Source: a virus (lineage: Duplodnaviria; Heunggongvirae; Uroviricota; Caudoviricetes). From it: a stretch of 39,229 nt of DNA. The notes under the pieces were generated by a model. That model made no database searches. It saw only the letters and a program-made list of their open reading frames with translations, and was not told where the DNA came from. Each line of letters starts with the position of its first letter. Within the stretch, counting starts at the first letter, position 1. Position numbers and translations under genes: made by a program. The stretch lies in the IMG/VR virus record IMGVR_UViG_2537561824_000013; one strand, 5' to 3'. This document shows positions 1 to 39,229 of this stretch, in pieces.

Positions 1-879
1 ATGTTATGTTTTTTGATTTATATCACTCTCCCCTTCATTCAGCTTGTCTATTTCATTTCCTCTGAAAAGAAACTAACTATTCACATTGTGCAGATGTTTC
101 ACTTGTTATCACAGGTATTCTATAATCTCAAAAAGTTTTTAATGATGGATATGCTCGGAGTTGGAGATGCAATTAATATTAATACAAATAAAAATATCCG
201 GCAGGTATGCTAAAAGGATAAATGGCGTTCTCTGTATTTATTCGCAATTATCTGTAGGACAAATATGGAGAGCTTGATGAGTCAGAGCTAAAACAGCAAT
301 TGATAAATAAACATGTTGATTTATTCAAGAAAATGGATGTATTTTAAATATTGATTCTTAATATAACCTAATCAATAGATTATCACGTGAGAGCTGCACA
401 TTATTGGCGGGGCCGGGGGAAACATCATTTTGGGAACAATGAATCAGGTACTCTTACCACTGAAGCAAGATCATCCGGGCACCTGGTGGTGGTGCAGTGC
501 TTTGGAAATGGTCCCCTCGGGGGAATTGTCATTATTTTCTATGCTATTTGCTTATGATATTCATCAGGTGAATTTAATAAATTCCTAATTTGAAATATCC
601 ACTATTAAGCCAGTGTTTAACGACGTTAAGATGGCAATGTGCAGATCATGTTATCAGGGTGGGGCGGTAGCGTATATTCCTTATACAAATCATCATTCAT
701 TTCAATGATTGTTATTGAATTATTTATTGTTGTGAATAAAAAGACATTATGAATATTGGTTTGACTTTGCATATCAGGTTTTTTATTACTCGCTGTAATG
801 TACAGGCAGGGAAAGATCATCAGAAGTTCACTTTTTGTACTAAATAATTCGCATTTTATGTTTAAAAATTGAGATGTTC

Positions 880-2110
880 CTCATTACCTGAAGCTGTTTT
901 TTATTGCTTATACATGATCAAATACTCCTTACATAATTAAGGAGAACAAAATGGAACTTAAAAAATTGATGGAACATATTTCTATTATTCCCGATTACAG
1001 ACAAGCCTGGAAAGTGGAACATAAATTATCGGATATTCTACTGTTGACTATTTGTGCCGTTATTTCTGGTGCAGAAGGTTGGGAAGATATAGAGGATTTT
1101 GGGGAAACACATCTCGATTTTTTGAAGCAATATGGTGATTTTGAAAATGGTATTCCTGTTCACGATACCATTGCCAGAGTTGTATCCTGTATCAGTCCTG
1201 CAAAATTTCACGAGTGCTTTATTAACTGGATGCGTGACTGCCATTCTTCAGATGATAAAGACGTCATTGCAATTGATGGAAAAACGCTCCGGCACTCTTA
1301 TGACAAGAGTCGCCGCAGGGGAGCGATTCATGTCATTAGTGCGTTCTCAACAATGCACAGTCTGGTCATCGGACAGATCAAGACGGATGAGAAATCTAAT
1401 GAGATTACAGCTATCCCAGAACTTCTTAACATGCTGGATATTAAAGGAAAAATCATCACAACTGATGCGATGGGTTGCCAGAAAGATATTGCAGAGAAGA
1501 TACAAAAACAGGGAGGTGATTATTTATTCGCTGTAAAAGGAAACCAGGGGCGGCTAAATAAAGCCTTTGAGGAAAAATTTCCGCTGAAAGAATTAAATAA
1601 TCCAGAGCATGACAGTTACGCAATGAGTGAAAAGAGTCACGGCAGAGAAGAAATCCGTCTTCATATTGTTTGCGATGTCCCTGATGAACTTATTGATTTC
1701 ACGTTTGAATGGAAAGGTCTGAAGAAATTATGCGTGGCAGTCTCCTTTCGGTCCATAATAGCAGAACAAAAGAAAGAGCCCGAAATGACGGTCAGATATT
1801 ATATCAGTTCTGCTGATTTAACCGCAGAAAAGTTCGCCACAGCAATCCGAAACCACTGGCACGTGGAGAATAAGCTGCACTGGCGTCTGGACGTGGTAAT
1901 GAATGAAGACGACTGCAAAATAAGAAGAGGAAACGCCGCAGAATTATTTTCAGGGATACGGCACATCGCTATTAATATTTTGACGAATGATAAGGTATTC
2001 AAGGCAGGGTTAAGACGTAAGATGCGAAAAGCAGCTATGGACAGAAACTATCTGGCGTCAGTCCTTGCGGAGAGCGGGCTTTCGTAGTCTTACCCCGACT
2101 CTCCCCCAGC
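880..2110 (+). mobile_element. ISAs1-family insertion sequence (E. coli H-repeat type); boundaries approximate, terminal inverted repeats not confidently identified
   Basis: Single 378-aa transposase ORF with about 100 bp of flanking sequence each side, as expected for a ~1.3 kb IS; a weak 8-bp match GTGTTTAA at 614-621 vs 2120-2127 would give an element too long to be convincing. Confidence 0.45.
951..2087 (+). CDS. ISAs1-family transposase (H-repeat-associated protein)
   Basis: 378-aa ORF with ATG at 951 preceded by AAGGAGA; product recognisably similar from memory to E. coli H-repeat proteins (YhhI/YdcC-type), e.g. the ...[21 protein letters not shown]... segment. Confidence 0.85.
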
Positions 2111-2128
2111 CTTAAACACAACCCCCAC

Positions 2129-2608
2129 TCACCGCAACCTAAACTCATCCGCATCCTGCCATGCCGGAAACTTTTCTCTATATTCCCGCAATGCCATCAT
2201 CGACAGCTCCGCATCAATGCGCGTTGCCTGATGCGCGTCGGCAGTAGCGATAATCTCGCCTTGTGGATTAATCACCCGGCTGTCACCGCGATAATGGCAG
2301 CCGTTGCCATCGCTGCCGACGCGATTGCATCCCGCCACATACGCCTGATTCTCAATCGCGCGGGCCGTCAGCAATGCCTGCCAGTGCAGAGAGCGCGGAG
2401 CAGGCCAGTTGGCGACGTACAGGGCGAGGTCATAATCGTTGAGATTGCGCGACCACACAGGAAAACGTAAGTCGTAGCACACCAGCGGCAAAATACGCCA
2501 GCCGCGCCATTCCACAATCACTCGCGCATTGCCCGCTTTATAATGTAGATGCTCATCTGCCATGCGGAACAGATGACGCTTATCATAAAAATGTACCGTG
2601 CCGCCCGG
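2129..2608 (-). pseudogene. yafV: 5'-truncated carbon-nitrogen hydrolase (nitrilase superfamily) gene, yafV-like; N-terminal part displaced by the prophage insertion
   Basis: Product contains ...GTVHFYDKRHLF... and the catalytic-Cys context LVCYDLRFP typical of CN hydrolases; the first 16 residues of the track ORF (MPFIAQDRVHLSRGAS) read through the prophage terminal sequence, so the host-derived frame starts near 2608. The yafV name is from memory and unverified. Confidence 0.55.
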
Positions 2609-2686
2609 TGATGCGCCGCGCGATAAATGCACTCTATCTTGTGCGATAAATGGCATCCACGCGGCGTTTCATTATTTGAAAAAGAA
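2609..2686. mobile_element. Prophage terminal region (attR-like end) with candidate transposase-binding repeats
   Basis: Sequence starts TGATGCGCCGCGCGATAAATG at 2609; GCGATAAATG occurs directly repeated at 2620-2629 and 2643-2652; 78 bp separate the end from the invertase stop codon. Confidence 0.5.
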
Positions 2687-3259
2687 TTACATTTCAGGTT
2701 GCGTTATGACAGTCCCAACAGGGTGATAGCGGTAGATCGTTGACAGTCCAATATCATAGATAATTGCCAGCCGCTTTCTGTCATACCCTTTCTGGAGCAA
2801 TCTTGCGATCTGCTCATGCTGCTCCTTCGTCAGTTTCGGGCGACGTCCTCCAACTCTTCCTTGTGCTCGCGCAGCAGCCAGTCCAGCCAGCGTGCGCTCA
2901 ACTATCAGTTCACGCTCCATTTCTGCCAGTGCACCCATCATATGAAAAAAGAACCTTCCCATCGGAGTGCTGGTATCGATTGAATCCGTCAGACTGCGAA
3001 AATTGACACCTTTTGCGCGTAGCTCTTCTGTGAGAGCAATGAGGTGTTTCATTCTTCTACCCAACCGATCCAGCTTCCAGACCACCAATGTATCCCCTCT
3101 TTTAAGGCACTTTAAAGCGCGTTTCAGGCCTGGTCGTTCCGACTTGGTTCCGCTCATTTTGTCCTCAAAAATCTGTTCACATCCTGCGCACATTAATGCA
3201 TTGCGTTGCAAATCTGTGTTTTGGTCATTTGTTGACACACGTATGTAGCCAATCAGCAT
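2687..3259 (-). CDS. gin: Site-specific DNA invertase, Gin/Hin/Pin/Cin family serine recombinase
   Basis: ATG at complement of 3257-3259 preceded by AAGGGAG; product starts MLIGYIRVSTNDQNTDLQRNAL with the catalytic Ser context and ends in an HTH (GLSTIYRY); the 233-aa track ORF starting at GTG 3388 is an over-extension. Confidence 0.9.
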   Translation of the reverse strand: MLIGYIRVSTNDQNTDLQRNALMCAGCEQIFEDKMSGTKSERPGLKRALKCLKRGDTLVVWKLDRLGRRMKHLIALTEELRAKGVNFRSLTDSIDTSTPMGRFFFHMMGALAEMERELIVERTLAGLAAARAQGRVGGRRPKLTKEQHEQIARLLQKGYDRKRLAIIYDIGLSTIYRYHPVGTVITQPEM

Positions 3260-3325
3260 TAAAAATACTCCCTTTTGAGTGGTTAAAGTACTGAGATAAT
3301 GTGGGGAGGATTTGAGAGATAAACG

Positions 3326-3545
3326 TTGGTTTGGGGGAAGGCTCGGCGCTGCCCGTTGGTGTACCTGTTCCGTGGCCCACTGCCACACCGCCAGCAGGCT
3401 GGTTAAAGTGCGACGGGCGCGCCTTTACAAAAGAACAATATCCTGTTCTGGCCAGAGTCTACCCGACCCTCCGTCTTCCCGATTTGCGCGGTGAGTTTAT
3501 CCGTGGATGGGACGACGGGCGAAAAGTGGATACAGGGCGCGATCT
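3326..3545. repeat. Recombination repeat A at the 5' border of fiber cassette 1; inverted relative to repeat C
   Basis: About 220 bp nearly identical to 3765-3985 and, as reverse complement, to about 5150-5370; homology starts at TTGGTTTGGGGGAAGG, which resembles a gix/hix half-site (GGTTT...GGAA). Confidence 0.6.
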
Positions 3546-3759
3546 GCTTTCACGGCAGGATGGTACAAGTTTTTCTCATTACGCAGGTAATTTTGACATT
3601 GGGTCTGGTCATTCAATCAATAACTATGACCAAATCCTTGACAACCAACCTGGATTCTCCCGTTTTTCATTTGCAGGTCCTTCGCGAGGCGATGGGGTTA
3701 ATTATGTGACCATTCGTCCCCGTAACATTGCGTTTAATTACATCGTAAGGGCGGCATAG
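3331..3759 (+). CDS. Alternative tail-fiber C-terminal cassette 1 (promoterless and start-less exon, currently unexpressed orientation)
   Basis: Frame opens at TTG with no ATG or RBS; the first ~70 aa (GEGSALPVGVPVPWPTATPPAGWLKCDGRAF...GWDDGRKVDTGR) are identical to the matching segment of the expressed fiber, then diverge; ends in the conserved ...RPRNIAFNYIVRAA. Confidence 0.6.
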   Translation: MGEGSALPVGVPVPWPTATPPAGWLKCDGRAFTKEQYPVLARVYPTLRLPDLRGEFIRGWDDGRKVDTGRDLLSRQDGTSFSHYAGNFDIGSGHSINNYDQILDNQPGFSRFSFAGPSRGDGVNYVTIRPRNIAFNYIVRAA

Positions 3760-3764
3760 AAACG

Positions 3765-3985
3765 TTGGTTTGGGGGAAGGCTCTGCATTGCCTGTTGGTG
3801 TACCGGTTCCATGGCCCACCGCCACACCGCCAGCAGGCTGGTTACAGTGCAACGGAGCTACGTTCACCAAAGAACAATATCCTGTTCTGGCCAGAGTCTA
3901 CCCGACCCTCCGTCTTCCCGATTTGCGCGGTGAGTTTATCCGTGGATGGGACGGTGGTCGCAAGGTTGATACCGGGCGTGCGCTA
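3765..3985. repeat. Recombination repeat B at the 5' border of fiber cassette 2; direct with A, inverted relative to C
   Basis: Same shared sequence as repeat A, starting AACGTTGGTTTGGGGGAAGG. Confidence 0.6.
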
Positions 3986-4231
3986 CTTTCATTTCAGGAA
4001 GGGACTATCGTATCCGGTTTTGATGATAATGATACCGGAGATATCAGTTCGCTCGGCTCTACACAATACGGATTTGGTGACGCTTTAACCTCTAATCAAC
4101 TGGGGGTCTTAAATGGCAAAAAGTGGATATTTGATGCATCCTCTAAAGGTGCACAAAGATATGACTGGTGGGCTTATGTATCAGCTCGCCCCCGCAATAT
4201 CGCATTTAACTATATCGTGAGGGCGGCGTGA
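3770..4231 (+). CDS. Alternative tail-fiber C-terminal cassette 2 (promoterless and start-less exon)
   Basis: Frame opens at TTG; shares the N-terminal ~70 aa with cassette 1 and the fiber, then has a unique distal domain; same C-terminal NYIVRAA. Confidence 0.6.
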   Translation: MGEGSALPVGVPVPWPTATPPAGWLQCNGATFTKEQYPVLARVYPTLRLPDLRGEFIRGWDGGRKVDTGRALLSFQEGTIVSGFDDNDTGDISSLGSTQYGFGDALTSNQLGVLNGKKWIFDASSKGAQRYDWWAYVSARPRNIAFNYIVRAA

Positions 4232-4237
4232 TACCGT

Positions 4238-4852
4238 TCAGCCGGCAAGCGCCAGTGGCGCTTCCGGCCAGCTGATTTCAGGTGCCTTGCTGATATCCAG
4301 TGCGTTCAGCTCGTCGATATAATCCAGCACGGCGTTCAGTTTTGCCGTTTCTTCTGGTTTCAGACTGCGACCAGCACGCAGTTTGAGGTTGATAAGATCG
4401 ACGGACGCCATCGCCTGTTTCACCCGTTGCTGGCGTTGCTGTCTGGCAACCTCCAGTTCTGCGGCTCGCTGCCGTTCAGTATCGGTTACCCACGCCTCAC
4501 CGTTCCAGGTATCCCATGGCGTGGCTGGCTGTTTTGTGGTGGTGTCCGCCGGGTAATCACCCGGTTGGGTAATCAGAACGGGGTTACCGTTCTCCGTGCT
4601 GTATACCGTCTCGCCGCGGTGATCAGGCACATGCTCCCACCCGTTCAGCGTGGCAGTCCGGCAAACCACGTAACCCGAAATTGCTTCCGGCGGTGCATCG
4701 GCGCACGAATGTGCCGGAGTACCCACCCCAAGGGCGAGATACTCCACAGAGGATGAGGTGTATTCCCGGGTTTCCTCGTCATAGTGATATACAGTGATAT
4801 CGCCCGCTACAGTGGCGATACCGTTTTCATCCAGAACTGCAGTGTTACTCAT
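4238..4852 (-). CDS. Tail fiber assembly protein (Mu U / P2 G / Tfa-like chaperone)
   Basis: 204-aa ORF whose ATG overlaps the fiber stop codon; product has the N-terminal conserved region typical of Tfa proteins; its position right after the fiber gene matches Mu S-U. Confidence 0.75.
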   Translation of the reverse strand: MSNTAVLDENGIATVAGDITVYHYDEETREYTSSSVEYLALGVGTPAHSCADAPPEAISGYVVCRTATLNGWEHVPDHRGETVYSTENGNPVLITQPGDYPADTTTKQPATPWDTWNGEAWVTDTERQRAAELEVARQQRQQRVKQAMASVDLINLKLRAGRSLKPEETAKLNAVLDYIDELNALDISKAPEISWPEAPLALAG

Positions 4853-5149
4853 TAAACTGCCCTCACAATGTAATTAAGTGCAATGCTACGGGGTCTGACA
4901 GTGATACCCTTCGCATACCCGCTTCTGATAGAGGTCAGAATAGTAGCCTGCATACCATTGTCTGACATTGCCACGACAGGATCGCTGAATGTTGTCCCGT
5001 CCGGCATTTTAAAGCTGCCCTCACGAAGGTCTGTAATGGAATCTTCATTGTTGAATCCCATGCCGACTATCCCCGAGGTTCCCGTAGTGTCCTGGTTATA
5101 ATAATCCAGCATTGCTGTTCTTAACAGCGTTGCCCCTTGTGCGGACAGC

Positions 5150-5370
5150 AACTTACGTCCTGTATCAACTTTGCGCCCGTCGTCCCATCCACGGATAAAC
5201 TCACCGCGTAAATCGGGAAGACGGAGGGTCGGGTAGACTCTGGCCAGAACAGGATATTGTTCTTTTGTAAAGGCGCGCCCGTCGCACTTTAACCAGCCTG
5301 CTGGCGGTGTGGCGGTGGGCCACGGAACAGGCACACCAACGGGTAGCGCCGAGCCTTCTCCTAAACCAAG
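5150..5370. repeat. Recombination repeat C inside the expressed fiber gene; inverted relative to A and B
   Basis: Reverse complement reads CTTGGTTTAGGAGAAGGCTCGGCGCT... and is nearly identical to repeats A and B over about 220 bp. Confidence 0.6.
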
Positions 5371-5499
5371 GTAATTGAGGACATCTTTTATACTGCCCTT
5401 AGCGATAATAGCGCGACCAATAGCTGTAAGGGTTGCCAGCTCTGCGCGGTCTGCTCCGGTAAAATAAGGCAACCGATCTGCTGCAGTGGCAAGTCCTGC

Positions 5500-6000
5500 C
5501 AGAGCAGTGAGCGTGGCATCTGCCGGTTGTTTTCCGTTTGCCAGATCGTATGCAGCCTTGACCGCTTTCGGTGTGGCGGCCAGTATTTCAGACGTGCTGT
5601 TGATGGCACTGCTCAATTGTACGGTGCCTTTTGCCGTCAGCGAGGCAGCAGGCACTCCCGTTATCTGACTCCACGGGTGAGTGTGGCTGACGGGCGCCTT
5701 GCCGGCTGCAAGGTCGTATGCAGCCTTGACCGCCTTCGGCGTGGCAGCCTCAGTTTCTGATTGACTGTCCGTGGCGCTGCTCAGTTGTACGGTGCCTTTT
5801 GCCGTCAGCGAGGCAGCAGGCACTCCCGTTATCTGACTCCACGGGTGAGTTGGCTGACGGGGGCCTTGCCGGCAGCCAGGTCATATGCAGCCTTGACGGC
5901 CTTTGGTGTGGCGGCCAGCGTTTCAGAGGTGCTGTTGGTGGCACTGCTCAGTTGGGTGAACCCCTTAGCTGTCAGTGTCGCGTCCGGGTGGTTACGGGAA
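5500..6000. repeat. 168-bp tandem coding repeats (about three copies) in the tail fiber gene
   Basis: Each copy encodes ...SLTAKGTVQLSSATDSxSEtxAATPKAVKAAYDLAAGKAPVSHTHPWSQITGVPA...; the nucleotide copies are nearly identical. Confidence 0.8.
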
Positions 6001-6184
6001 CGTACGTGTTCAGCCAGTGACTGTGCGGCTTCCTCCGTTTTTTTCTTCAGCCATTTCGTCCTGTTTGCCAGTTGCCGGGGGGCTCGATTTGATATCCCGT
6101 CTGCACCACCCAGAACCGGATCTGATGTCTCCAGTTGATAGATATTTTCTTCCCACTTTTCTGTTTCATTCAGGTTTCCCATAA

Positions 6185-6763
6185 TCAACTGCTCCCGTGG
6201 TTATAACTGCCATCATGGATGGCGGTATTGTTATAGCGAATGGCCACAGACTGATACTCCAGGCTGGCCAGATGGCAGCGGGCCGGTGCAAATGCAGCGA
6301 GCGTCTGACGCAGCATCGCGGCCTGATCGTTAGTAATGGGCTGTTTCAGAATAACGCGATAAACTGCCCAGGCGGCTGCATCTCCATGAACAAACAGTCC
6401 GTTATAGCTGCGATTGCCGTCGTAACTGAGACGACCTGTGCCTTCAATCAGATCCACTTCACCAAAGCCAAAACGGCGGATAACTTCCCGGATTGACCAC
6501 GGCGTCCCTTTATACCGGTGCAGTTCGATGGCTGCTTTTATAAGCATGCGGCGAACATCGTCCGATTCCGCCAGCTCCCAGCCATCGCCAGACAGTGAGA
6601 ACTGCTCGCCCAGCCATGGCAGCGCGGAACTGTCGACGATATCGACGAGAAAGACCATCAGTACGCTCAGGTCGATGTTATCCAGCCGTCCTGCCAGTCT
6701 TCCCAGCGTCCTGAGACTGATATCACCCTCAAGCGGTGGCGGGAGTTGTAATGGCTCAGTCAT
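6185..6763 (-). CDS. Baseplate/tail protein (P2 gpI-like, Mu gp48-like)
   Basis: 192-aa ORF, ATG at 6763 overlapping the upstream stop; sits between the baseplate J-like gene and the fiber as in P2 and Mu. Confidence 0.65.
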   Translation of the reverse strand: MTEPLQLPPPLEGDISLRTLGRLAGRLDNIDLSVLMVFLVDIVDSSALPWLGEQFSLSGDGWELAESDDVRRMLIKAAIELHRYKGTPWSIREVIRRFGFGEVDLIEGTGRLSYDGNRSYNGLFVHGDAAAWAVYRVILKQPITNDQAAMLRQTLAAFAPARCHLASLEYQSVAIRYNNTAIHDGSYNHGSS

Positions 6764-27783: not shown

Positions 27784-28512
27784 ATGACGCAGACACTGAA
27801 TCCGGTCATCACTGTCACCGTGTCCGGTCCTGTGGGCAGCGGTAAAAGTTACGTACTGGCGCGAATAGAGGAAGTGGTGAAACAGGAATTCGGAAACAGC
27901 GTCATTGTCGACGCCGCAGACGTGGACGGTGAGCGCCGTATGAGTGGGGATGATCTGAGCACATGGCAGAAACCACGGGCTGGCACAGTGATCAGGCTGG
28001 AGGAATACACGGGACAGGGCCTGTTGTCATACGGCGAGGAGCGTATCTGTCGGACGAATGAGCTGCTGGATGTTATATGCCCCACGGGCCGGCAACCCTG
28101 GATACTGCCCGATGCACTGCATGCCACCATTGCGGCACTGATGACAGTTTACGATCAGGAGCTGCTCATGAAGGAGTTACGTAAACTCACTGGTCAGTCA
28201 ACAGAATGTTGTTCGTCCCCGAAGTACGGCAAACAGGAACACATCCCGATTAACCAGCCTCCCCGGTTCTTCGACGAATACCTTCTGACACCGGAAAATA
28301 AAGCTGAGCATGAAGAGATCAAAGCGGCGTTGTTCCGGGAAATCAGGAAGATTGCTGAAATGCAACTGGAGGGCGGGCTGGACAGAGTGATGGCGAGAGG
28401 AGAATGGGCATCGCTGTTTGAAAGAGTTTCCCCGGAATTACTTCCCCTCGCACTGGCTATCGGGATTATGCAGACAGCGGATAAACCTCACTTACGTTCA
28501 TTAAACACGTAA
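27784..28512 (+). CDS. Hypothetical protein with N-terminal P-loop (Walker A) motif; unknown function
   Basis: ATG at 27784 with AGGAGAA upstream; Walker A-like GPVGSGKS at residues 15-22; the remainder is unrecognisable to me. Confidence 0.6.
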   Translation: MTQTLNPVITVTVSGPVGSGKSYVLARIEEVVKQEFGNSVIVDAADVDGERRMSGDDLSTWQKPRAGTVIRLEEYTGQGLLSYGEERICRTNELLDVICPTGRQPWILPDALHATIAALMTVYDQELLMKELRKLTGQSTECCSSPKYGKQEHIPINQPPRFFDEYLLTPENKAEHEEIKAALFREIRKIAEMQLEGGLDRVMARGEWASLFERVSPELLPLALAIGIMQTADKPHLRSLNT

Positions 28513-28892
28513 CGCATAATCCGGGATACGCATTCAGCGATGACTGCATTTTCACCGGTTTTTACTGCATCCAGAAGTGACTCTTTAAATGGTACGGGCC
28601 GGGGCTGCAGAAAGGTCGGCATGGCATTGAGCAGACAGAGCGTTTTTTCCGTGAGGACGACATCAGCCGCTCCCACAGCCAGCAACTGAGAGTAACGAAT
28701 ATAGCTGTTATCCCGAAGCCATATCAGCGTATCAATAAAACACCGGCACTTTTTCTGGTCGTGATCAACCTGGTCCGGGATATCGAAAAAACCAGAATAA
28801 ATCAAAACCTGAGGTGCCGGATGCGTGTTCAGTAATCGGCAGAATATTTTGCCGGTGAGTACATAAAAATCATCATTTAAGGAGTGCATCAT
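28488..28892 (-). CDS. Hypothetical protein (134 aa), unknown function
   Basis: ATG at complement of 28890-28892 with a weak GGGGA Shine-Dalgarno; converges on and overlaps the 3' end of the P-loop gene by 25 nt; its start codon overlaps the start of the divergent 71-aa ORF. Confidence 0.35.
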   Translation of the reverse strand: MMHSLNDDFYVLTGKIFCRLLNTHPAPQVLIYSGFFDIPDQVDHDQKKCRCFIDTLIWLRDNSYIRYSQLLAVGAADVVLTEKTLCLLNAMPTFLQPRPVPFKESLLDAVKTGENAVIAECVSRIMRYVFNERK

Positions 28893-29106
28893 GAATCCCC
28901 GATTAACGTTAACAGAACATCAGCGCCGTGCTGAAGCAGTGAACAATGTTCTGGAAGATATTATCCGGTTATACCGCGGAGAACTGAGTGTCTGTCGTGC
29001 CGCTTTTCATTTTCAGGGAATACAAAAGCAGTTTGATACTTCTGTTTTTGCAGAAGGTATTACTTATGCCCTGGACCGGATAAGGTCAGAAAATCGCCCC
29101 GGATAA
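28891..29106 (+). CDS. Hypothetical small protein (71 aa), unknown function
   Basis: ATG at 28891 with TAAGGAG 7 nt upstream. Confidence 0.45.
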   Translation: MNPRLTLTEHQRRAEAVNNVLEDIIRLYRGELSVCRAAFHFQGIQKQFDTSVFAEGITYALDRIRSENRPG

Positions 29107-29160
29107 TCCCTAAACCACATTAACAGAAATCCCGCCATCCCTGCCGCATCATGAAAGAAC

Positions 29161-29192
29161 GACCAGCCCGGCACCCGAAAGCCGGGCTGGTC
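29161..29192. other. Perfect 12-bp stem / 8-nt loop hairpin between the 71-aa ORF and the methyltransferase gene
   Basis: GACCAGCCCGGC acccgaaa GCCGGGCTGGTC; not followed by a U-run on the plus strand and only a modest one on the minus strand. Confidence 0.5.
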
Positions 29193-29296
29193 ATCGCCCC
29201 ACAGGAATGCGCTGTGAGCCGACCAAGGTTCAGTCAGTCTCGCGAGACCTGACCAGACTGCCATATTTTTTAATAATTGTAAAAGGCTTGCAGATT

Positions 29297-30061
29297 ATGA
29301 AAATGCAGACATTACCCATCGTGCCGTGGATTGGTGGCAAACGCCGCCTTGCAAAACACATTCTGCCGCTGTTTCCGGCGCATGAATGTTATGTGGAGCC
29401 GTTTTGTGGGGCAGCAGCGCTCTATTTTCTTAAGACACCCGGCAAGATCGAAGTCATCAATGATATCAACGGTGAACTGGTGAATCTGTACCGGGTGGTA
29501 AAGCATCACCTGGAAGAATTTGTCCGCCAGTTCAAATGGGCGCTGGTCAGCCGTCAGATCTACAAATGGCTGCAGATCACCCCGGAAGAAACACTGACGG
29601 ATATCCAGCGTGCGGCACGGTTCTACTACCTTCAGAAGCAGGCGTTTGGCGGCAAGGTGGCAGAGCACAGCTTCGGTACCTCCACCACATCCCCGCCACG
29701 CTTCAACCTGCTACGTATTGAAGAAGAACTGTCAGCGGCACACCTGCGGCTTTCCAGAACAGTCATAGAACACATGGACTGGCAACAGTGCATTGAGCGT
29801 TATGATCGTCCGCACACGCTGTTCTACTGCGACCCACCGTACCTGGGTACGGAAGGCTATGGTGTGGATTTTCCTGAAGGGAACTACTCGCGGCTGGCAG
29901 AGCTGGCCCGGTGCATCAGAGGAAAAATGATAATTTCGGTGAACGACATCCCGCAGATGCGCGAGGTGTTCACTGGACTGAACATACAGACAGTGAATAT
30001 CAACTACAGTCTGGCGGGTAAACCCACGCCGCGCCGTGAACTGCTAATCTGCAACTTCTGA
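29297..30061 (+). CDS. DNA adenine methyltransferase, Dam-like (D12 class N6-adenine MTase)
   Basis: ATG at 29297; product MKMQTLPIVPWIGGKRRLAKHILP... has the Dam-type N-terminus, an AdoMet motif (EPFCGAAALYF) and the catalytic DPPY motif; specificity cannot be read from sequence. Confidence 0.85.
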   Translation: MKMQTLPIVPWIGGKRRLAKHILPLFPAHECYVEPFCGAAALYFLKTPGKIEVINDINGELVNLYRVVKHHLEEFVRQFKWALVSRQIYKWLQITPEETLTDIQRAARFYYLQKQAFGGKVAEHSFGTSTTSPPRFNLLRIEEELSAAHLRLSRTVIEHMDWQQCIERYDRPHTLFYCDPPYLGTEGYGVDFPEGNYSRLAELARCIRGKMIISVNDIPQMREVFTGLNIQTVNINYSLAGKPTPRRELLICNF

Positions 30062-30177: not shown

Positions 30178-30534
30178 TCAGCCTGCGATTTTTCCTGGTT
30201 TTGGCTGAGTATAGAATCGCCCAATCTCAAGAAATGAGCGTTGTTGGTCTGGTGTCATGTCGTCAAAAGTATCTATTAGTTTTTGTTTTTCTGGGGAAAT
30301 TTGATTCTGGTTTCTAGTCATACCATCTGTGCTCATTCCAGTGAGCAACCAATTTACATCAACATTAAACTCTTGATGCATCTTTAACAGAAACTCCCCT
30401 CCAGGCATCGCCTTTCCATTTTCAATCTGACTGATACCACCATTAGAAATACCTAAACGAGCTGCAAATTCTCTCTGGTTCAACCCTGCTTTCTTCCTCA
30501 CAGAAATAACGCGCTCTCCTATATCTTTGCTCAT
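30178..30534 (-). CDS. Prophage immunity repressor, XRE-family HTH protein
   Basis: 118-aa ORF divergent from the early operon; HTH segment LNQREFAARLGISNGGISQIENGK; its start codon lies inside an operator half-site. Confidence 0.8.
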   Translation of the reverse strand: MSKDIGERVISVRKKAGLNQREFAARLGISNGGISQIENGKAMPGGEFLLKMHQEFNVDVNWLLTGMSTDGMTRNQNQISPEKQKLIDTFDDMTPDQQRSFLEIGRFYTQPKPGKIAG

Positions 30535-32440: not shown

Positions 32441-34210
32441 ATGACCCCGGCACTGACTGAAAAACTGGTTGAAACAGCCCGCGCGGCACGTGACGCGGGG
32501 CATGGTAAACGCGGTGCAATATACGACGCTGCCTGTGCTGAACTTGGCATGTCCCGCGCCACTCTGCTGCGCAGGCTGAAGGAGGTATCTGTGACTGATA
32601 AACGCAAAAAACGCGCCGATGCCGGGCGCAGCGCCCTGACCCGCGACGAAGCCGCGCTGATATCTGCCACACTGCGTGAGGCCACCCGCAAGAACGGTAA
32701 GCGTCTCTATTCCATCGCAGATGCAGTGGAAACCCTGCGGGCTAACGGCTTTATCACCGCAGGCAGAACAGATGAAACCACCAGTGAGTTTTTCCCGTTG
32801 TCTGAAGATGCCATCAGCCGTGCTCTGCGTAACTATGGCCTGCACCCGGAACAACTGGATGCCCCTGCACCACATACCGAAGTGGCCAGTCTGCATCCCA
32901 ATCATGTCTGGCAGATTGACGCCTCACTCTGCACGCTTTACTACCTGAGCAATGGACATAAAGGGCTGCAGGTGATGGACAGCGCGAAGTTCTACAAGAA
33001 CAAGCCCGCTAACCTTGCCCGTATCGCCAGTGACCGCGTGTGGAGTTACGAGATTACCGACCATGCCAGCGGCTGGATTTACGTTGAGTATGTGACGGGC
33101 GCGGAATCAGGTGAGAACCTGTGTTCTGTGCTTATCAACGCCATGCAGGAGCGTGGCGGCGCAGACGTGCTGCACGGCGTGCCGAAAATACTCTATCTCG
33201 ACCCCGGCTCGGCAAACACCGCGGGTATGACGAAAAACATGTGCCGCTCACTGGGCATCGACCTGATAGCGCACAAGCCGCATAACGCCCGCGCCACCGG
33301 ACAGGTGGAAAAGGCGCGTGACATTATCGAACGCAAGCTGGAGCCGGGTCTGAAGTTCCGGCCGGTTCACAGTCTGGAAGAACTCAACGCGCTGGCCGCG
33401 AAATGGCGCAGCCACTTTAACGCCACGGCTGTTCACAGCCGCCACGGTAAAACCCGCACGGATATCTGGCTGAAGATTACTGCTGAGCAGCTGAAAAAAG
33501 CGCCTTCCGTTGAGGTATGTCGTGAACTGGCTGTGGCGGCACCAGAACTCCGCAAAGTCACGCCAAAACTTCGTGTCTCGTTCCGGGGCACTGAATTTGA
33601 CGTATCAACGGTACCGGGCGTACTGGTTGGTGAAAAACTGATGATTACCCGTAACCCATGGCGCAGCGATGTGGCACAGGTGGTTCTGACCGGTGAGGAC
33701 GGCCACGAGACGTTCTTCCTGGTCGAAGAGGTCAGAAAGAACGAGTTTGGCTTTGCTGAAGGCGCGGCGGTATTTGGCGAAAGTTACAAAGCCCTGCCGG
33801 AAACCCCGGCACAGATGGCGGCAAAAGAAACCGAAGCGCTGGTTACCGGTACAGACAACGCCGCAGATGCAGCCGCCGCACGCAAGGCGAAGGCGCTGCC
33901 GTTCGGCGGGCGGCTTGACCCGTATAAACATATCGACGACACCACACTTCCGGCCTATATGCCGAAGCGTGGTCAGGCCTCTGACGTACGCGGGCCGCGC
34001 ACTGAACAACGTCCCATGACTCATGTGGAGGCCGCGAAAGCCCTGCGCGATAAGTTCAGCGCCGACGGCCTTACCTGGACGCCGGAACATTACCGCCAGT
34101 TAACGGCACAGTACCCGGACGGCGTACCGGAAGCCGCACTGGATGAAGTCATGGCCACGCTGACCACACCGGCCCGCAGCAGTGTTATCAGCATTGTTAA
34201 CGGCAACTGA
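32441..34210 (+). CDS. DDE transposase (integrase-core/rve-type; functional equivalent of MuA)
   Basis: 589-aa ORF with ATG at 32441; N-terminal HTH, then candidate catalytic triad in ...VWQIDAS..., ...LYLDPGSAN... and ...TGQVEKA... with about 35 aa between the second D and the E; followed by the B-like ATPase. Confidence 0.85.
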   Translation: MTPALTEKLVETARAARDAGHGKRGAIYDAACAELGMSRATLLRRLKEVSVTDKRKKRADAGRSALTRDEAALISATLREATRKNGKRLYSIADAVETLRANGFITAGRTDETTSEFFPLSEDAISRALRNYGLHPEQLDAPAPHTEVASLHPNHVWQIDASLCTLYYLSNGHKGLQVMDSAKFYKNKPANLARIASDRVWSYEITDHASGWIYVEYVTGAESGENLCSVLINAMQERGGADVLHGVPKILYLDPGSANTAGMTKNMCRSLGIDLIAHKPHNARATGQVEKARDIIERKLEPGLKFRPVHSLEELNALAAKWRSHFNATAVHSRHGKTRTDIWLKITAEQLKKAPSVEVCRELAVAAPELRKVTPKLRVSFRGTEFDVSTVPGVLVGEKLMITRNPWRSDVAQVVLTGEDGHETFFLVEEVRKNEFGFAEGAAVFGESYKALPETPAQMAAKETEALVTGTDNAADAAAARKAKALPFGGRLDPYKHIDDTTLPAYMPKRGQASDVRGPRTEQRPMTHVEAAKALRDKFSADGLTWTPEHYRQLTAQYPDGVPEAALDEVMATLTTPARSSVISIVNGN

Positions 34211-34220
34211 GGAGGGAAAC

Positions 34221-35387
34221 ATGCTGGTACTGAAGCAGCAACTGAAAGAGGCCCGTATTCCACAGGCGGTGGTGGCGAGAGCTGTCGATGTTTCTGAGGC
34301 CACGCTGGCCCAGATTGTGAATCATAACGCGTGGCCCCGCACCAGCCCCGGAGAAGTGCGCCGGCGTCTTGCGTCCTGGCTGGAAAGTCAGGGGATTGAT
34401 ACAACGAAGAGTTTTGATGCTGTACAGGGCGCGGCCACGCCCCGTACAGCGGGTACCACAGATAAAACGAGCCTCAGTGAGGAAGAGAATATGTTACTCA
34501 AAAAACAGGTGTTATTTCCAGCAACCAAAAAAGCGTTTGGTCTTTTCCGTGACCCGTTCGCCGACGAAGCCATGCAGGGTTCTGATGATGTGTTCACCAC
34601 CCCGGATATTCGCTACGTGCGTGAGGCGTTGTACCAGACAGCCCGTCATGGTGGGTTTATGGCCGTCATCGGTGAGTCCGGTGCGGGTAAATCCACGCTG
34701 CGCCGCGACCTGACTGAACGTATCAACCGCGAGAATGCGCCGGTAATTGTTATCGAGCCATACATCATCGCTATGGAAGACAACGATGTGAAAGGGAAAA
34801 CCCTGAAGGCAGCAGCGATTGCCGAAGCCATTATCAGTACCATCGCACCACTGGAAAGCATCAGACGCAGTCAGGACGCCCGCTTTCGCCAGTTGCATCG
34901 CGTCCTGAAAGACAGCAGCCAGGCGGGGTTCAGCCACGTTCTGGTGATTGAGGAGGCCCACAGTCTGCCCATTCCGACACTGAAACACCTCAAACGCTTT
35001 TTTGAGCTGGAGTCCGGTTTCAAAAAACTGCTGTCCATCGTGCTGATTGGCCAGCCGGAACTGGCGACAAAACTGTCTGAACGCAATATGGAAGTCCGTG
35101 AAGTCGTTCAGCGCTGTGAGGTGGTCGAACTTCTGCCTCTGGACAATAACCTTGAAGAGTTTCTGACGTTCAAACTGCAACGGGCCGGTAAACAACTGAC
35201 GGACATTATGGACGCCAGCGCAGTGGATGCCATACGTGCCCGCCTGAGCAATCCGGGAAGTCATCGTAAAAATATGGTCAGCCTGCTGTATCCGCTGGCC
35301 GTCAGTAACCTGGTAATAGCCGCCATGAATCTGGCCGCTGAAATCGGGGTTCCACAGGTCAACGCTGACGTTGTCAAAGGGGTTTAA
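34221..35387 (+). CDS. Transposition helper ATPase (AAA+; MuB/TniB-like)
   Basis: ATG at 34221 with GAGGAGGGAAAC upstream; Walker A GESGAGKST and Walker B-like VLVIEEAH; immediately downstream of the transposase. Confidence 0.8.
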   Translation: MLVLKQQLKEARIPQAVVARAVDVSEATLAQIVNHNAWPRTSPGEVRRRLASWLESQGIDTTKSFDAVQGAATPRTAGTTDKTSLSEEENMLLKKQVLFPATKKAFGLFRDPFADEAMQGSDDVFTTPDIRYVREALYQTARHGGFMAVIGESGAGKSTLRRDLTERINRENAPVIVIEPYIIAMEDNDVKGKTLKAAAIAEAIISTIAPLESIRRSQDARFRQLHRVLKDSSQAGFSHVLVIEEAHSLPIPTLKHLKRFFELESGFKKLLSIVLIGQPELATKLSERNMEVREVVQRCEVVELLPLDNNLEEFLTFKLQRAGKQLTDIMDASAVDAIRARLSNPGSHRKNMVSLLYPLAVSNLVIAAMNLAAEIGVPQVNADVVKGV

Positions 35388-35686: not shown

Positions 35687-36217
35687 ATGGCAAAAAGTAC
35701 AAAAGGGGCAAAACGTATCAAAGCCGCAGCAGCACTCTGGGTGCCGGGGACACGCGAAGAGGTCATTGAGGGAATCAGACTGCTTGGTGACGCGCAACGT
35801 GAACTGGTCAGGGCTGAAACAGAAATGAATGACACCATTGGCGACATCACTGCACGTTATGCCCCGCTCACCGAGAGCCTGAAAAAACGCATGGCCGAAC
35901 TGCAGTCCGGTATCCAGACATGGTGTGAGGCGCACCGTGATGAACTGACCGGCAACGGGAAGGTGAAGTTCGCTAACCTCACCACCGGCGAGGTGCAGTG
36001 GCGAAACCGTCCGCCGTCAGTCAGCATTCGCGGGGCGGATAATGTCATTGAACTGCTGAGACGTCTGGGGCTTGAGCGCTTTATTCGTGTAAAAGAGGAA
36101 ATAAATAAAGACGCTATCCTGAATGAAAAAGAGGCCGTGAAAAATATTCCCGGTATTTCCATTAAAAGCGACATTGAGGATTTTTCAATAATTCCTTTTG
36201 AGCAGGATGTGCAGTAA
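35687..36217 (+). CDS. gam: Gam-like host-nuclease inhibitor (DNA end-binding protein)
   Basis: 176-aa product closely matches phage Mu Gam as I remember it (e.g. ...WCEAHRDELTGNGKVKFANLTTGEVQWRNRPPSVSIRG... and C-terminal ...DFSIIPFEQ...). Confidence 0.8.
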   Translation: MAKSTKGAKRIKAAAALWVPGTREEVIEGIRLLGDAQRELVRAETEMNDTIGDITARYAPLTESLKKRMAELQSGIQTWCEAHRDELTGNGKVKFANLTTGEVQWRNRPPSVSIRGADNVIELLRRLGLERFIRVKEEINKDAILNEKEAVKNIPGISIKSDIEDFSIIPFEQDVQ

Positions 36218-38418: not shown

Positions 38419-38868
38419 ATGCAGAAAAAACGCCTGATACAGCTTATCCATATTGCCCGTAATGAACTGGGTATGGATGAAGACACCTACCGCCAGATGT
38501 TACAGGGGCTGACCGGTAAAGCCTCAACCAAAGGAATGGATACCACACAACTAAACTGCGTGCTGGAATCCATGAAAAAGAAAGGCTTTCGCGTTAAACC
38601 AGCCAGAAAAGCCAGCTCCGGTTTACCGCTGGATAACCATCCGCAGTCCAGGAAAATTCGTGCGCTATGGCTTGAAATGGCTGCTGCCGGCATTGTTCGT
38701 GACCGTTCAGAAAATGCATTAGCGAGGTGGATCAAGCGGGAAACGGGCATCAGCGCCCTGCGCTGGCTCAGTACTGAACAGGCAAGCAGTGTTATTGAGA
38801 AACTGAAGAAGTGGCAGCGCAGAGCTGCGGGAGTCAAACATGAGCGACCTGAATCAGTTTCGAAGTAA
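38419..38868 (+). CDS. gemA: GemA-like early regulatory protein (Mu gp16 family)
   Basis: 149-aa product starting MQKKRLIQLIHIARNELGMDEDTYRQ, resembling Mu GemA; lies immediately upstream of mor as in Mu. Confidence 0.7.
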   Translation: MQKKRLIQLIHIARNELGMDEDTYRQMLQGLTGKASTKGMDTTQLNCVLESMKKKGFRVKPARKASSGLPLDNHPQSRKIRALWLEMAAAGIVRDRSENALARWIKRETGISALRWLSTEQASSVIEKLKKWQRRAAGVKHERPESVSK

Positions 38869-39229
38869 GGGGCCGGAACTCCTGGTGGAACTGGCACAGC
38901 ATCCCTCTGAGACCGTTCGCGAGATTATTGATATTGAGCCCGAAGTTGCCGACCAGATTGGTCAGGCCGTCGCGAACCGAATGATGCAGGTCTGGGGCGG
39001 GCAAAACGTTTATTTCCCGATGGGCATGGTATGGAAGGTCAGTCAGCGCGACCGGGAAATCTTCAGGGAGTTTAACGGACGCAACCACCACGAACTGGCC
39101 CGCAAATTTGGTGTTTCGCTTCAGTGGGTCTACAGCGTGGTTAAGCGGGTAAGAAAAGAAGAACTGGATCGGATGCAGGGCAAGCTATTTGCTGATGAAC
39201 CCGATGCAGATACGGAGAAAAAAGAGTAA
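38840..39229 (+). CDS. mor: Mor-like middle transcription activator
   Basis: 129-aa product, the same length as Mu Mor, with a C-terminal HTH (HHELARKFGVSLQWVYSVVKRVR); the stop codon is the last three bases of the window. Confidence 0.8.
   Translation: MSDLNQFRSKGPELLVELAQHPSETVREIIDIEPEVADQIGQAVANRMMQVWGGQNVYFPMGMVWKVSQRDREIFREFNGRNHHELARKFGVSLQWVYSVVKRVRKEELDRMQGKLFADEPDADTEKKE

Follow-up and report, generated by a model that had tools for sequence, protein, structure and literature searches.

Phage Mu, the classical transposable phage, has three transposase sites per end and an internal enhancer. All of its genes but the repressor are transcribed one way, from the c end to the S end, and the com and mom genes lie between the invertase and the adjacent end. 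The Tn552 transposase binds two directly repeated motifs of about 23 bp per end and generates 6–7-bp duplications. TG-CA ends are conserved among Mu-like and B3-like phages, and B3 makes a 6-bp duplication, which is the footprint of the B3/Tn552-family transposase (PMC8705779). TG...CA termini also characterise BcepMu-related prophages with an rve core (PMC2628397). Relative to Mu, B3-like genomes have an inverted early operon and encode different transposition proteins (PMC5977238), and Toussaint and Van Gijsegem (2018) are cited in PMC8705779 for the two genome organisations of phages with a Tn552-related transposase.

Here, a viral stretch of 39,229 nucleotides (hereafter, the window) was analysed, in which a Mu-style prophage end had been predicted inside a nitrilase-family gene. 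In our reading, position 2609 is one terminus of a 36.8-kb BcepMu-type (Bcepmuvirus-like) transposable prophage that was inserted into Escherichia coli yafV by DDE transposition; we place the probability of this reading at about 0.93. The results support the original prediction as essentially right, with two corrections: the target duplication is 6 bp long, and the element is of the BcepMu/B3 (Tn552-type) kind.

The junction in yafV and the far terminus

The following features define the junction and the extent of the element.

2129 to 2608, minus strand: 3' part of yafV, cut off by the insertion; host gene for a 2-oxoglutaramate amidase of the nitrilase superfamily (CN_hydrolase match, K-12 annotation)
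2603 to 2608, no strand: left copy of the target-site duplication, GCCCGG; the same hexamer directly follows ...TAATCA at the far end
2609 to 2610, plus strand: terminal 5'-TG dinucleotide; the far end closes with CA-3', and 15 distinct flanks join at exactly the same base
2609 to 39229 plus 162 bp past the window, no strand: BcepMu-type transposable prophage, 36,783 bp in all (far end read, BcepMu gene order)

The minus-strand yafV reading frame contains PGGTVHFYDKRHLF, reads ...SPGGTVHFYDKRHLFRMADEHLHYKAG... and has its stop codon at 2129. It matches the Pfam family CN_hydrolase (E=9e-23) over profile positions 104-255 only, the C-terminal two-thirds of the domain. The host-like frame had been noted to run to about 2608, and the alignment of window positions 1807-2608 with the K-12 yafF-yafV region (97.5% identity) indeed ends at exactly 2608. 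On the window side the junction reads ...GCCGCCCGG and then TG; the bases directly after 2608 are TGATGCGCCGCGCGATAAATGCACTCTATCTTGTGCGATAAATGG, and the element begins TGATGCGCCGCGCGATAAATG, in agreement with the 5'-TG end proposed at 2609-2610. In other genomes and contigs, 15 different flanking sequences adjoin the identical TG, which fixes the boundary of the element to the base at 2609. The yafV junction also came out of separate assemblies, namely Logan runs SRR446947 (in a contig shared by 10 samples) and SRR446954 and one IMG/VR contig, and is therefore not an assembly artefact. A copy of ISEc1 adjoins yafV.

The far end was located by an exact-protein look-up of Mor, the product of the last gene of the window, which led to contig APYU01000021.1 of assembly GCA_000358835.2. 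The last 3,390 bases of the window are identical to the start of the fetched stretch of this contig, so that the assembly is the source of the window or an identical genome. The other terminus lies 162 bp beyond the right edge of the window and ends ...TAATCA, the sequence there being ...CCCTGTCATTTATCTCAAGTCTAATCA. Read inward, the far end is TGATTAGACTTGAGATAAATG... and the window end TGATGCGCCGCGCGATAAATG...; the inverted terminal motif that was to be looked for at the other end is thus present in the same assembly. Directly after the far terminus come GCCCGG and a minus-strand reading frame, VPGLKITLLQQPLGWMDGPANLRHFDRQLEG...FLLVEPG and a stop, which supplies the 99 N-terminal codons of YafV that are absent from the window. 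The other half of the interrupted gene accordingly lies where it had been predicted, and beyond it are ivy and then fadE, the same as in K-12.

Deletion of the element together with exactly 6 bp joined the flanks with 0 mismatches to K-12 yafV over 40 nt, versus 12-13 mismatches when 4, 5 or 7 bp were removed instead (12 for 5 bp), and the left-flank and right-flank alignments to K-12 overlap by exactly these 6 bp. Removal of the element and one GCCCGG copy therefore restores the uninterrupted gene, as the proposed alignment to an intact yafV locus was meant to reveal, and this exact rejoining indicates that an element of 36,783 bp with TG...CA termini was simply inserted and that 6 bp of the target were duplicated. 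A short duplication does flank the element, as anticipated, but its length is not the 5 bp first suggested.

The insertion splits yafV into 99 codons on the 5' side and a 3' remainder from which the N-terminal part of the domain is missing; the split gene is presumably inactive. The boundary, fixed to the base, accounts for both the truncated yafV pseudogene and the chimeric 175-codon open reading frame that come from gene callers.

Gene content and comparison with related phages

The element carries the following genes and segments that bear on its classification.

2687 to 3259, minus strand: small serine invertase of the Gin/Hin type, 190 aa (Pfam Resolvase, E=8e-51, and HTH_7)
3321 to 5372, no strand: invertible tail-fibre segment with two alternative fibre C-terminal cassettes, a fibre-assembly gene and the 3' end of the current fibre gene
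30178 to 30534, minus strand: candidate lysogeny repressor, cI-like helix-turn-helix protein (HTH_3, E=5e-15; Phage_CI_repr, E=2e-5)
32441 to 34210, plus strand: TnpA transposase, 589 aa, rve/DDE; rve is its sole Pfam match
34221 to 35387, plus strand: TnpB, ExeA-like AAA+ transposition ATPase (Pfam AAA_22, E=4e-20)
35687 to 36217, plus strand: Gam host-nuclease inhibitor (Pfam Phage_Mu_Gam, on the identical protein from APYU01000021.1)
38419 to 38868, plus strand: GemA (PF06252)
38840 to 39229, plus strand: Mor late-transcription activator (PF08765), last gene before the far terminus

In GenBank, Escherichia phage PhiKM is classed under Bcepmuvirus, and its transposase is 100% identical to TnpA. 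The identity of TnpA to gp40 of Burkholderia phage phiE255 is 68%, and over the full length it is 68% identical to BcepMu gp09 and 56% identical to transposase A (TnpA) of Pseudomonas phage B3. The Pfam search of TnpA revealed rve only and no Mu-transposase domains, and in a protein search of the phage collection neither Mu nor D108 was among the matches listed, which came from BcepMu-, phiE255- and B3-type phages instead. TnpB adjoins TnpA; along its full length it aligns at 59% identity with BcepMu gp08, annotated as 'DNA transposition protein'. Sequence searches among solved structures returned no meaningful relatives of TnpA or TnpB.

The late genes, on the minus strand, extend from about 27.7 kb to 2.6 kb, at the invertase end, and encode holin, an SLT endolysin, terminase, a Mu-type portal, the F and G proteins and the tail fibre, together with tail proteins annotated as P2-like (sheath, tube, baseplate, gpU/X/D/V/W/J/I). 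The early genes are on the plus strand from about 30.9 to 39.2 kb, at the Mor end, where the window ends at the Mor stop codon; the equivalents of Mor, BcepMu gene 1 and B3 ORF1, each lie at the corresponding end of their genomes. The cI-like protein encoded at 30178-30534 probably acts as the repressor at the switch from which the late and early operons diverge, and its position matches that of BcepMu gp17. This gene order is that of BcepMu, with an early operon that is inverted relative to Mu and diverges from the late operon. Mor and GemA are both present, and the size of 36,783 bp falls inside the 36-39 kb range of B3/BcepMu-type phages.

The invertase stop codon had been placed 78 bp from the prophage end, and exactly 78 bp (2609-2686) separate the two. 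Apart from TnpA, this 190-aa invertase is the sole recombinase detected with Pfam. It switches tail-fibre tips and is unrelated to integration: inverted repeats of 229 nt lie at 3323-3551 and 3762-3990 versus 5144-5372, and the segment is flipped relative to a copy of the prophage in the ST131 lineage that is otherwise 99% identical. The tail-fibre gene reads as frameshifted at about 5850-5868 in the yafV copy, which may be genuine or may stem from a collapse of 168-bp repeats in the assembly, so this prophage may no longer make infectious particles; the frameshift has no bearing on how the element entered yafV.

All defining features of the B3/BcepMu group that were examined are present in the element, and three Mu-specific ones, namely MuA, a 5-bp duplication and a unidirectional layout, are absent. 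As in BcepMu and phiE255 (Bcepmuvirus), Mor and GemA stand at one end, and the early operon diverges from an operon for lysis, a Mu-like head and a P2-like tail; the TG...CA termini and the repeats described below are likewise shared with BcepMu. The two phages differ at the tail end, which carries the invertase and the invertible fibre segment in the E. coli phage but an acyltransferase in BcepMu, and in the accessory island between the operons, which includes a Dam methylase in the E. coli phage. With B3 (Beetrevirus) the element shares a transposase of one lineage, TG...CA ends and the 6-bp duplication, and B3 has degenerate repeats at about nucleotides 12 and 34-35. B3 is, however, a siphovirus with different structural genes and belongs to a different genus in the GenBank taxonomy. 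Tn552, unlike the element, is a transposon and not a phage.

The resemblance to Mu covers DDE transposition at near-random sites, TG...CA ends, repeated end sites, an ATPase partner, Gam, GemA, Mor and a Gin-type invertase for tail fibres beside one end. The wording 'Mu-style' in the original prediction therefore holds for the transposition mechanism but not for the family, as the transposase is of the Tn552/B3/BcepMu type rather than MuA and the layout is that of BcepMu. Further differences from Mu are the 6-bp instead of 5-bp duplication, the inverted early operon, tail genes annotated as P2-like, two conserved sites seen per end and the absence of any gene between the invertase and the end of the E. 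coli phage.

Paired repeats at the termini

Two direct repeats lie just inside the terminus.

2620 to 2629, plus strand: terminal repeat 1, GCGATAAATG, nucleotides 12-21 from the terminus; putative transposase-binding site
2643 to 2652, plus strand: terminal repeat 2, GCGATAAATG, nucleotides 35-44 from the terminus and 23 bp from repeat 1; putative transposase-binding site

The recurrence of GCGATAAATG 23 bp further in, pointed out in the original prediction, is borne out: these are the only two copies in the 39-kb window, 23 bp apart start to start, where shuffled sequences predict 0.09. The spaced pair G[C/A]GATAWWT-N14-G[C/A]GATAWWT likewise occurs once in the window versus 0.00 times in shuffles. 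In the E. coli phage and BcepMu, G[C/A]GATAWWT begins at nucleotides 12 and 35 (positions 12-20 and 35-43) at all four ends, which read inward from the terminal T as follows.

E. coli phage, invertase end: TGATGCGCCGC-GCGATAAAT-GCACTCTATCTTGT-GCGATAAAT
E. coli phage, Mor end: TGATTAGACTT-GAGATAAAT-GACAGGGAATAAGT-GAGATATTT
BcepMu, Mor end: TGAAGAGAGGT-GAGATATTT-CCAAGGGAGAACGC-GCGATATTT
BcepMu, tail end: TGAAGCGCGGC-GCGATATTT-CAGCACGTCGACGC-GCGATAAAT

B3 has degenerate repeats, GAGAAATAC and GCGATAAAG at nucleotides 12 and 35 of one end and GCGAAATTT and GCAATAAAT at nucleotides 12 and 34 of the other, and both BcepMu and B3 begin with TG at both ends. Because these positions are conserved between phages whose transposases are 56-68% identical, the repeats are supported as transposase-binding sites, an assignment that we base on position and conservation and that is therefore best regarded as probable.

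To extend this comparison, species-representative genomes were scanned for the architecture TGA-N8-G[C/A]GATAWWT-N14-G[C/A]GATAWWT, which was found at 120 loci or more; judging by record titles, about 70 of the 80 matches listed belong to Beta- or Gammaproteobacteria. Genes of the family were sought around the scan loci by tblastn and iterated HMM searches, with a median inward flank of 2.7 kb. At 18 of the at least 120 loci, genes for Mor, GemA, TnpA, TnpB or the tail fibre are located on the inner side of the motif, with transcription running towards it; at none do they lie on the outer side. The other 102 of the 120 loci were not tied to family genes, which short flanks, divergent proteins or chance may explain.

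We propose a mechanism in which TnpA would bind the two direct G[C/A]GATAWWT repeats at nucleotides 12-20 and 35-43 of each end. In each end about two helical turns (23 bp) separate the repeats, which have opposite orientations at the two ends of the element. TnpA would pair both ends and nick after the terminal CA. TnpB would then guide the TnpA-catalysed joining of the 3'-OH ends to target phosphates with a 6-bp stagger, and gap repair or replication would yield the GCCCGG duplication. Biochemical mapping of a two-site-per-end complex in BcepMu-like phages was not found in the accessible literature.

Other insertions and alternative explanations

Five further full insertions were fetched and both ends were read in each. 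Together with yafV, all six have an exact 6-bp duplication, each of different sequence, and identical TG...CA termini.

yafV: duplication GCCCGG
irp2: duplication CTCAGG
paaZ: duplication ACCCGC
dmsC: duplication CGATGG
yehY: duplication GCAGGG
aroA-ycaL (ST131): duplication GAAGAA

Hundreds of complete E. coli genomes carry the invertase-end sequence, beside yehY, gspF, gspL, fdrA, flgJ, dmsC, irp2, a fimbrial usher gene and paaZ. Among 5,426 complete E. coli genomes, 627 contain the Mor-end sequence, and in 532 of these the match covers 80% of the query or more; the pandemic ST131 lineage is among the carriers, and the neighbouring genes are ycaL, irp2, dmsC, paaZ, prpR and others. A scan of viral contigs raised the number of distinct flanks at the same TG to 15, and the interrupted or neighbouring genes are unrelated. 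The split of yafV and this diversity of sites agree with the random, gene-disrupting transposition that had been proposed. No clear target consensus emerged among the 15 hexamers; at best, G is weakly favoured at positions 5-6, and we make no claim to that effect. A 99.7% match to the end, 'Entero_P88_NC_026014(23)', was set aside, since the limits of this predicted prophage are wrong: it includes host genes and no more of the element than its first 1.7 kb.

The yafV junction itself is absent from all 5,426 complete E. coli genomes searched. The ST131 prophage copy, at its different site between aroA and ycaL, is 99.1-99.8% identical to the yafV element over the aligned segments, and a Bcepmuvirus prophage in ST131 has been reported (bioRxiv 10.1101/2022.05.07.487787). 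The yafV element adds one more copy to a prophage that is already known and common in E. coli, here at a position without a counterpart in the complete genomes.

Four other explanations were weighed against insertion of a BcepMu-type prophage by DDE transposition. A genuine Mu-family prophage (MuA-type, Muvirus) with a 5-bp duplication would share the TG...CA termini, the Mor, GemA and Gam homologues and, close to one end as in Mu, an invertible fibre segment with a Gin-like invertase. Against it stand a transposase that matches rve without any Mu-transposase domain and whose listed matches are BcepMu-, phiE255- and B3-type phages and not Mu or D108, the 6-bp duplication at six of six insertions, an early operon that, unlike in Mu, runs opposite to the late genes, the P2-like annotation of the tail genes and the sight of two conserved repeats per end and no more. 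Transposase type and duplication length refute this reading, which we regard as highly improbable. Site-specific integration by the serine recombinase encoded 78 bp from the end, with GCCCGG as the core of an attachment site, would explain the recombinase gene directly beside the prophage end and the short identical sequence on both flanks of the element. The 15 unrelated flanks speak against it, and since the flanking hexamers differ at all six sites read at both ends, there is no common attachment core. Moreover, the recombinase is a 190-aa invertase rather than a large serine integrase, it is paired with the 229-nt inverted repeats in the fibre genes, whose segment was seen flipped between copies, and a DDE transposase with its ATPase partner is present. 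The diversity of insertion sites excludes this explanation, to which we give practically no weight.

The position of the GCGATAAATG pair just downstream of the invertase stop codon could suggest a chance repeat or a signal of the invertase gene, such as a terminator or a regulator site, in place of transposase-binding sites. Chance is at odds with two copies 23 bp apart where 0.09 are expected in the window. A matching pair at the same distances is found at the Mor end, which has no invertase, and at both ends of BcepMu, which has an acyltransferase at the corresponding end in place of the invertase; reading the 78 bp by eye also revealed no G+C-rich hairpin with a T-run of the kind that a terminator would have. 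This explanation is very unlikely, albeit the least improbable of the four. An assembly chimera, finally, might be suspected in a draft contig in which an ISEc1 copy adjoins yafV and tail-fibre repeats may be mis-assembled, but the identical junction in SRR446947 (10 samples), SRR446954 and the IMG/VR contig, and the fact that both junctions with their perfect duplication reconstitute yafV, leave a chimera with only a negligible chance.

For this particular copy, insertion of a BcepMu-type prophage by transposition has little importance beyond correct annotation, with an expected scar of 6 bp now rather than 5 bp. The phage as such is common. Because it inserts into genes of interest, e.g., irp2, which is involved in yersiniabactin synthesis, its exact end sequences are useful, and TGATGCGCCGCGCGATAAATG... 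and ...CATTTATCTCAAGTCTAATCA can serve to spot insertions in short-read data. With odds that we judge to be even, we hypothesize that the repeat pair at nucleotides 12 and 35, placed identically in the E. coli and Burkholderia phages and discernible in B3 and in prophages of at least 18 other species, may define a minimal Tn552-type transposition complex with two sites per end for the whole lineage, and that the phage may be currently mobile in E. coli, knocking out genes such as irp2 and yafV.

Host junction in yafV and the chimeric reading frame

The junction between yafV and the invertase end of the prophage (terminal TG at window 2609-2610) is surrounded by the following features:

951..2087 (within window 1-2128): ISEc1 (H-repeat) transposase gene, intact
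2129-2656, minus strand: chimeric ORF of 175 codons, made of the phage end and a yafV 3' fragment
2687..3259: invertase gene, accompanying the invertible segment at 3321-5372

Between the end of the ISEc1 transposase gene and the stop codon of yafV there are 41 bp; K-12 retains just the yafF remnant at this position beside yafV. Because window 1-2095 matches the ydcC/yncH ISEc1 locus of ATCC 8739 at 99% identity, the DNA to the left of ISEc1 may derive from another chromosomal neighbourhood, via recombination between IS copies. The chimeric ORF begins with an ATG at 2656 within the phage end and continues across the terminus into the yafV fragment; it is this ORF that gene callers label as a CN_hydrolase protein, and its product lacks the N-terminal third of that domain. 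Since the invertase gene lies directly upstream on the same strand, read-through transcription from it into the chimeric ORF is possible.

Other insertions and the Mor end

A single insertion is common to four IMG/VR contigs carrying the same prophage end (L023, L026, L027 and L029). Its flank, TATTGGATACATTCGCATATCAAC, codes for ...IGYIRIS..., and judging by this sequence the phage seems to have inserted there into another serine-recombinase gene. The record PV468777.1, 'Escherichia phage Entero_P88_NC_026014(23), complete genome', was rejected as a mis-delimited prophage prediction with host genes inside: P2-like genes come first, then a host stretch of ~16 kb with dmsABC, pflB, serC and aroA, and the record ends in the first 1.7 kb of the BcepMu-like prophage.

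At the Mor end, the opposite terminus, which lies 162 bp past the window edge (positions 3475-3510 of L005, the stretch taken from contig APYU01000021.1), an extra direct repeat, ATGGGAAGA, is present in copies 20 bp apart, inward of both GAGATAWWT sites. BcepMu has ACGGAACGG repeated at the equivalent place, and comparison of the end sequences found nothing comparable at the invertase end. The repeat may be an end-specific accessory site.

Accessory island and tail-fibre variation

The late operon is separated from the early one by an accessory island (window 27784-30061):

27784..28512: protein without Pfam match
28488..28892: protein without Pfam match
29207..30061: D12-class adenine methyltransferase

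The island is common to the window prophage and its ST131 copy, L012, while three further copies (L002, L011, L009) carry different cargo at this position, e.g., an 'ABC transporter ATPase' or a DUF2441 protein.

The tail-fibre gene at window 5531-6188 contains tandem repeats of 167/168 bp (5531-6017) and a frameshift near 5850-5868, so that residues 1-111 are encoded in frame -2 and the remainder in frame -1. The gene is one unbroken 667-aa ORF in L002 and keeps a single frame throughout in L012; the frameshift reflects either genuine inactivation by mutation or collapsed repeats in a draft assembly.

The invertible segment comprises:

3321-5372: multi-cassette invertible tail-fibre segment, with inverted repeats and flipped copies
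3331..3759: alternative fibre C-terminal cassette 1, promoterless
3770..4231: alternative fibre C-terminal cassette 2, promoterless

Repeat comparison within the window revealed that 229-nt inverted repeats join the fibre gene (5144-5372) to the alternative cassettes. When the copies were aligned, block 3326-5372 as a whole had opposite orientations in the window and in the ST131 copy, which is 99% identical, and L010, another copy, displays a third arrangement. Given these differences in arrangement among the three copies, the prophage invertase is active, or was so recently.
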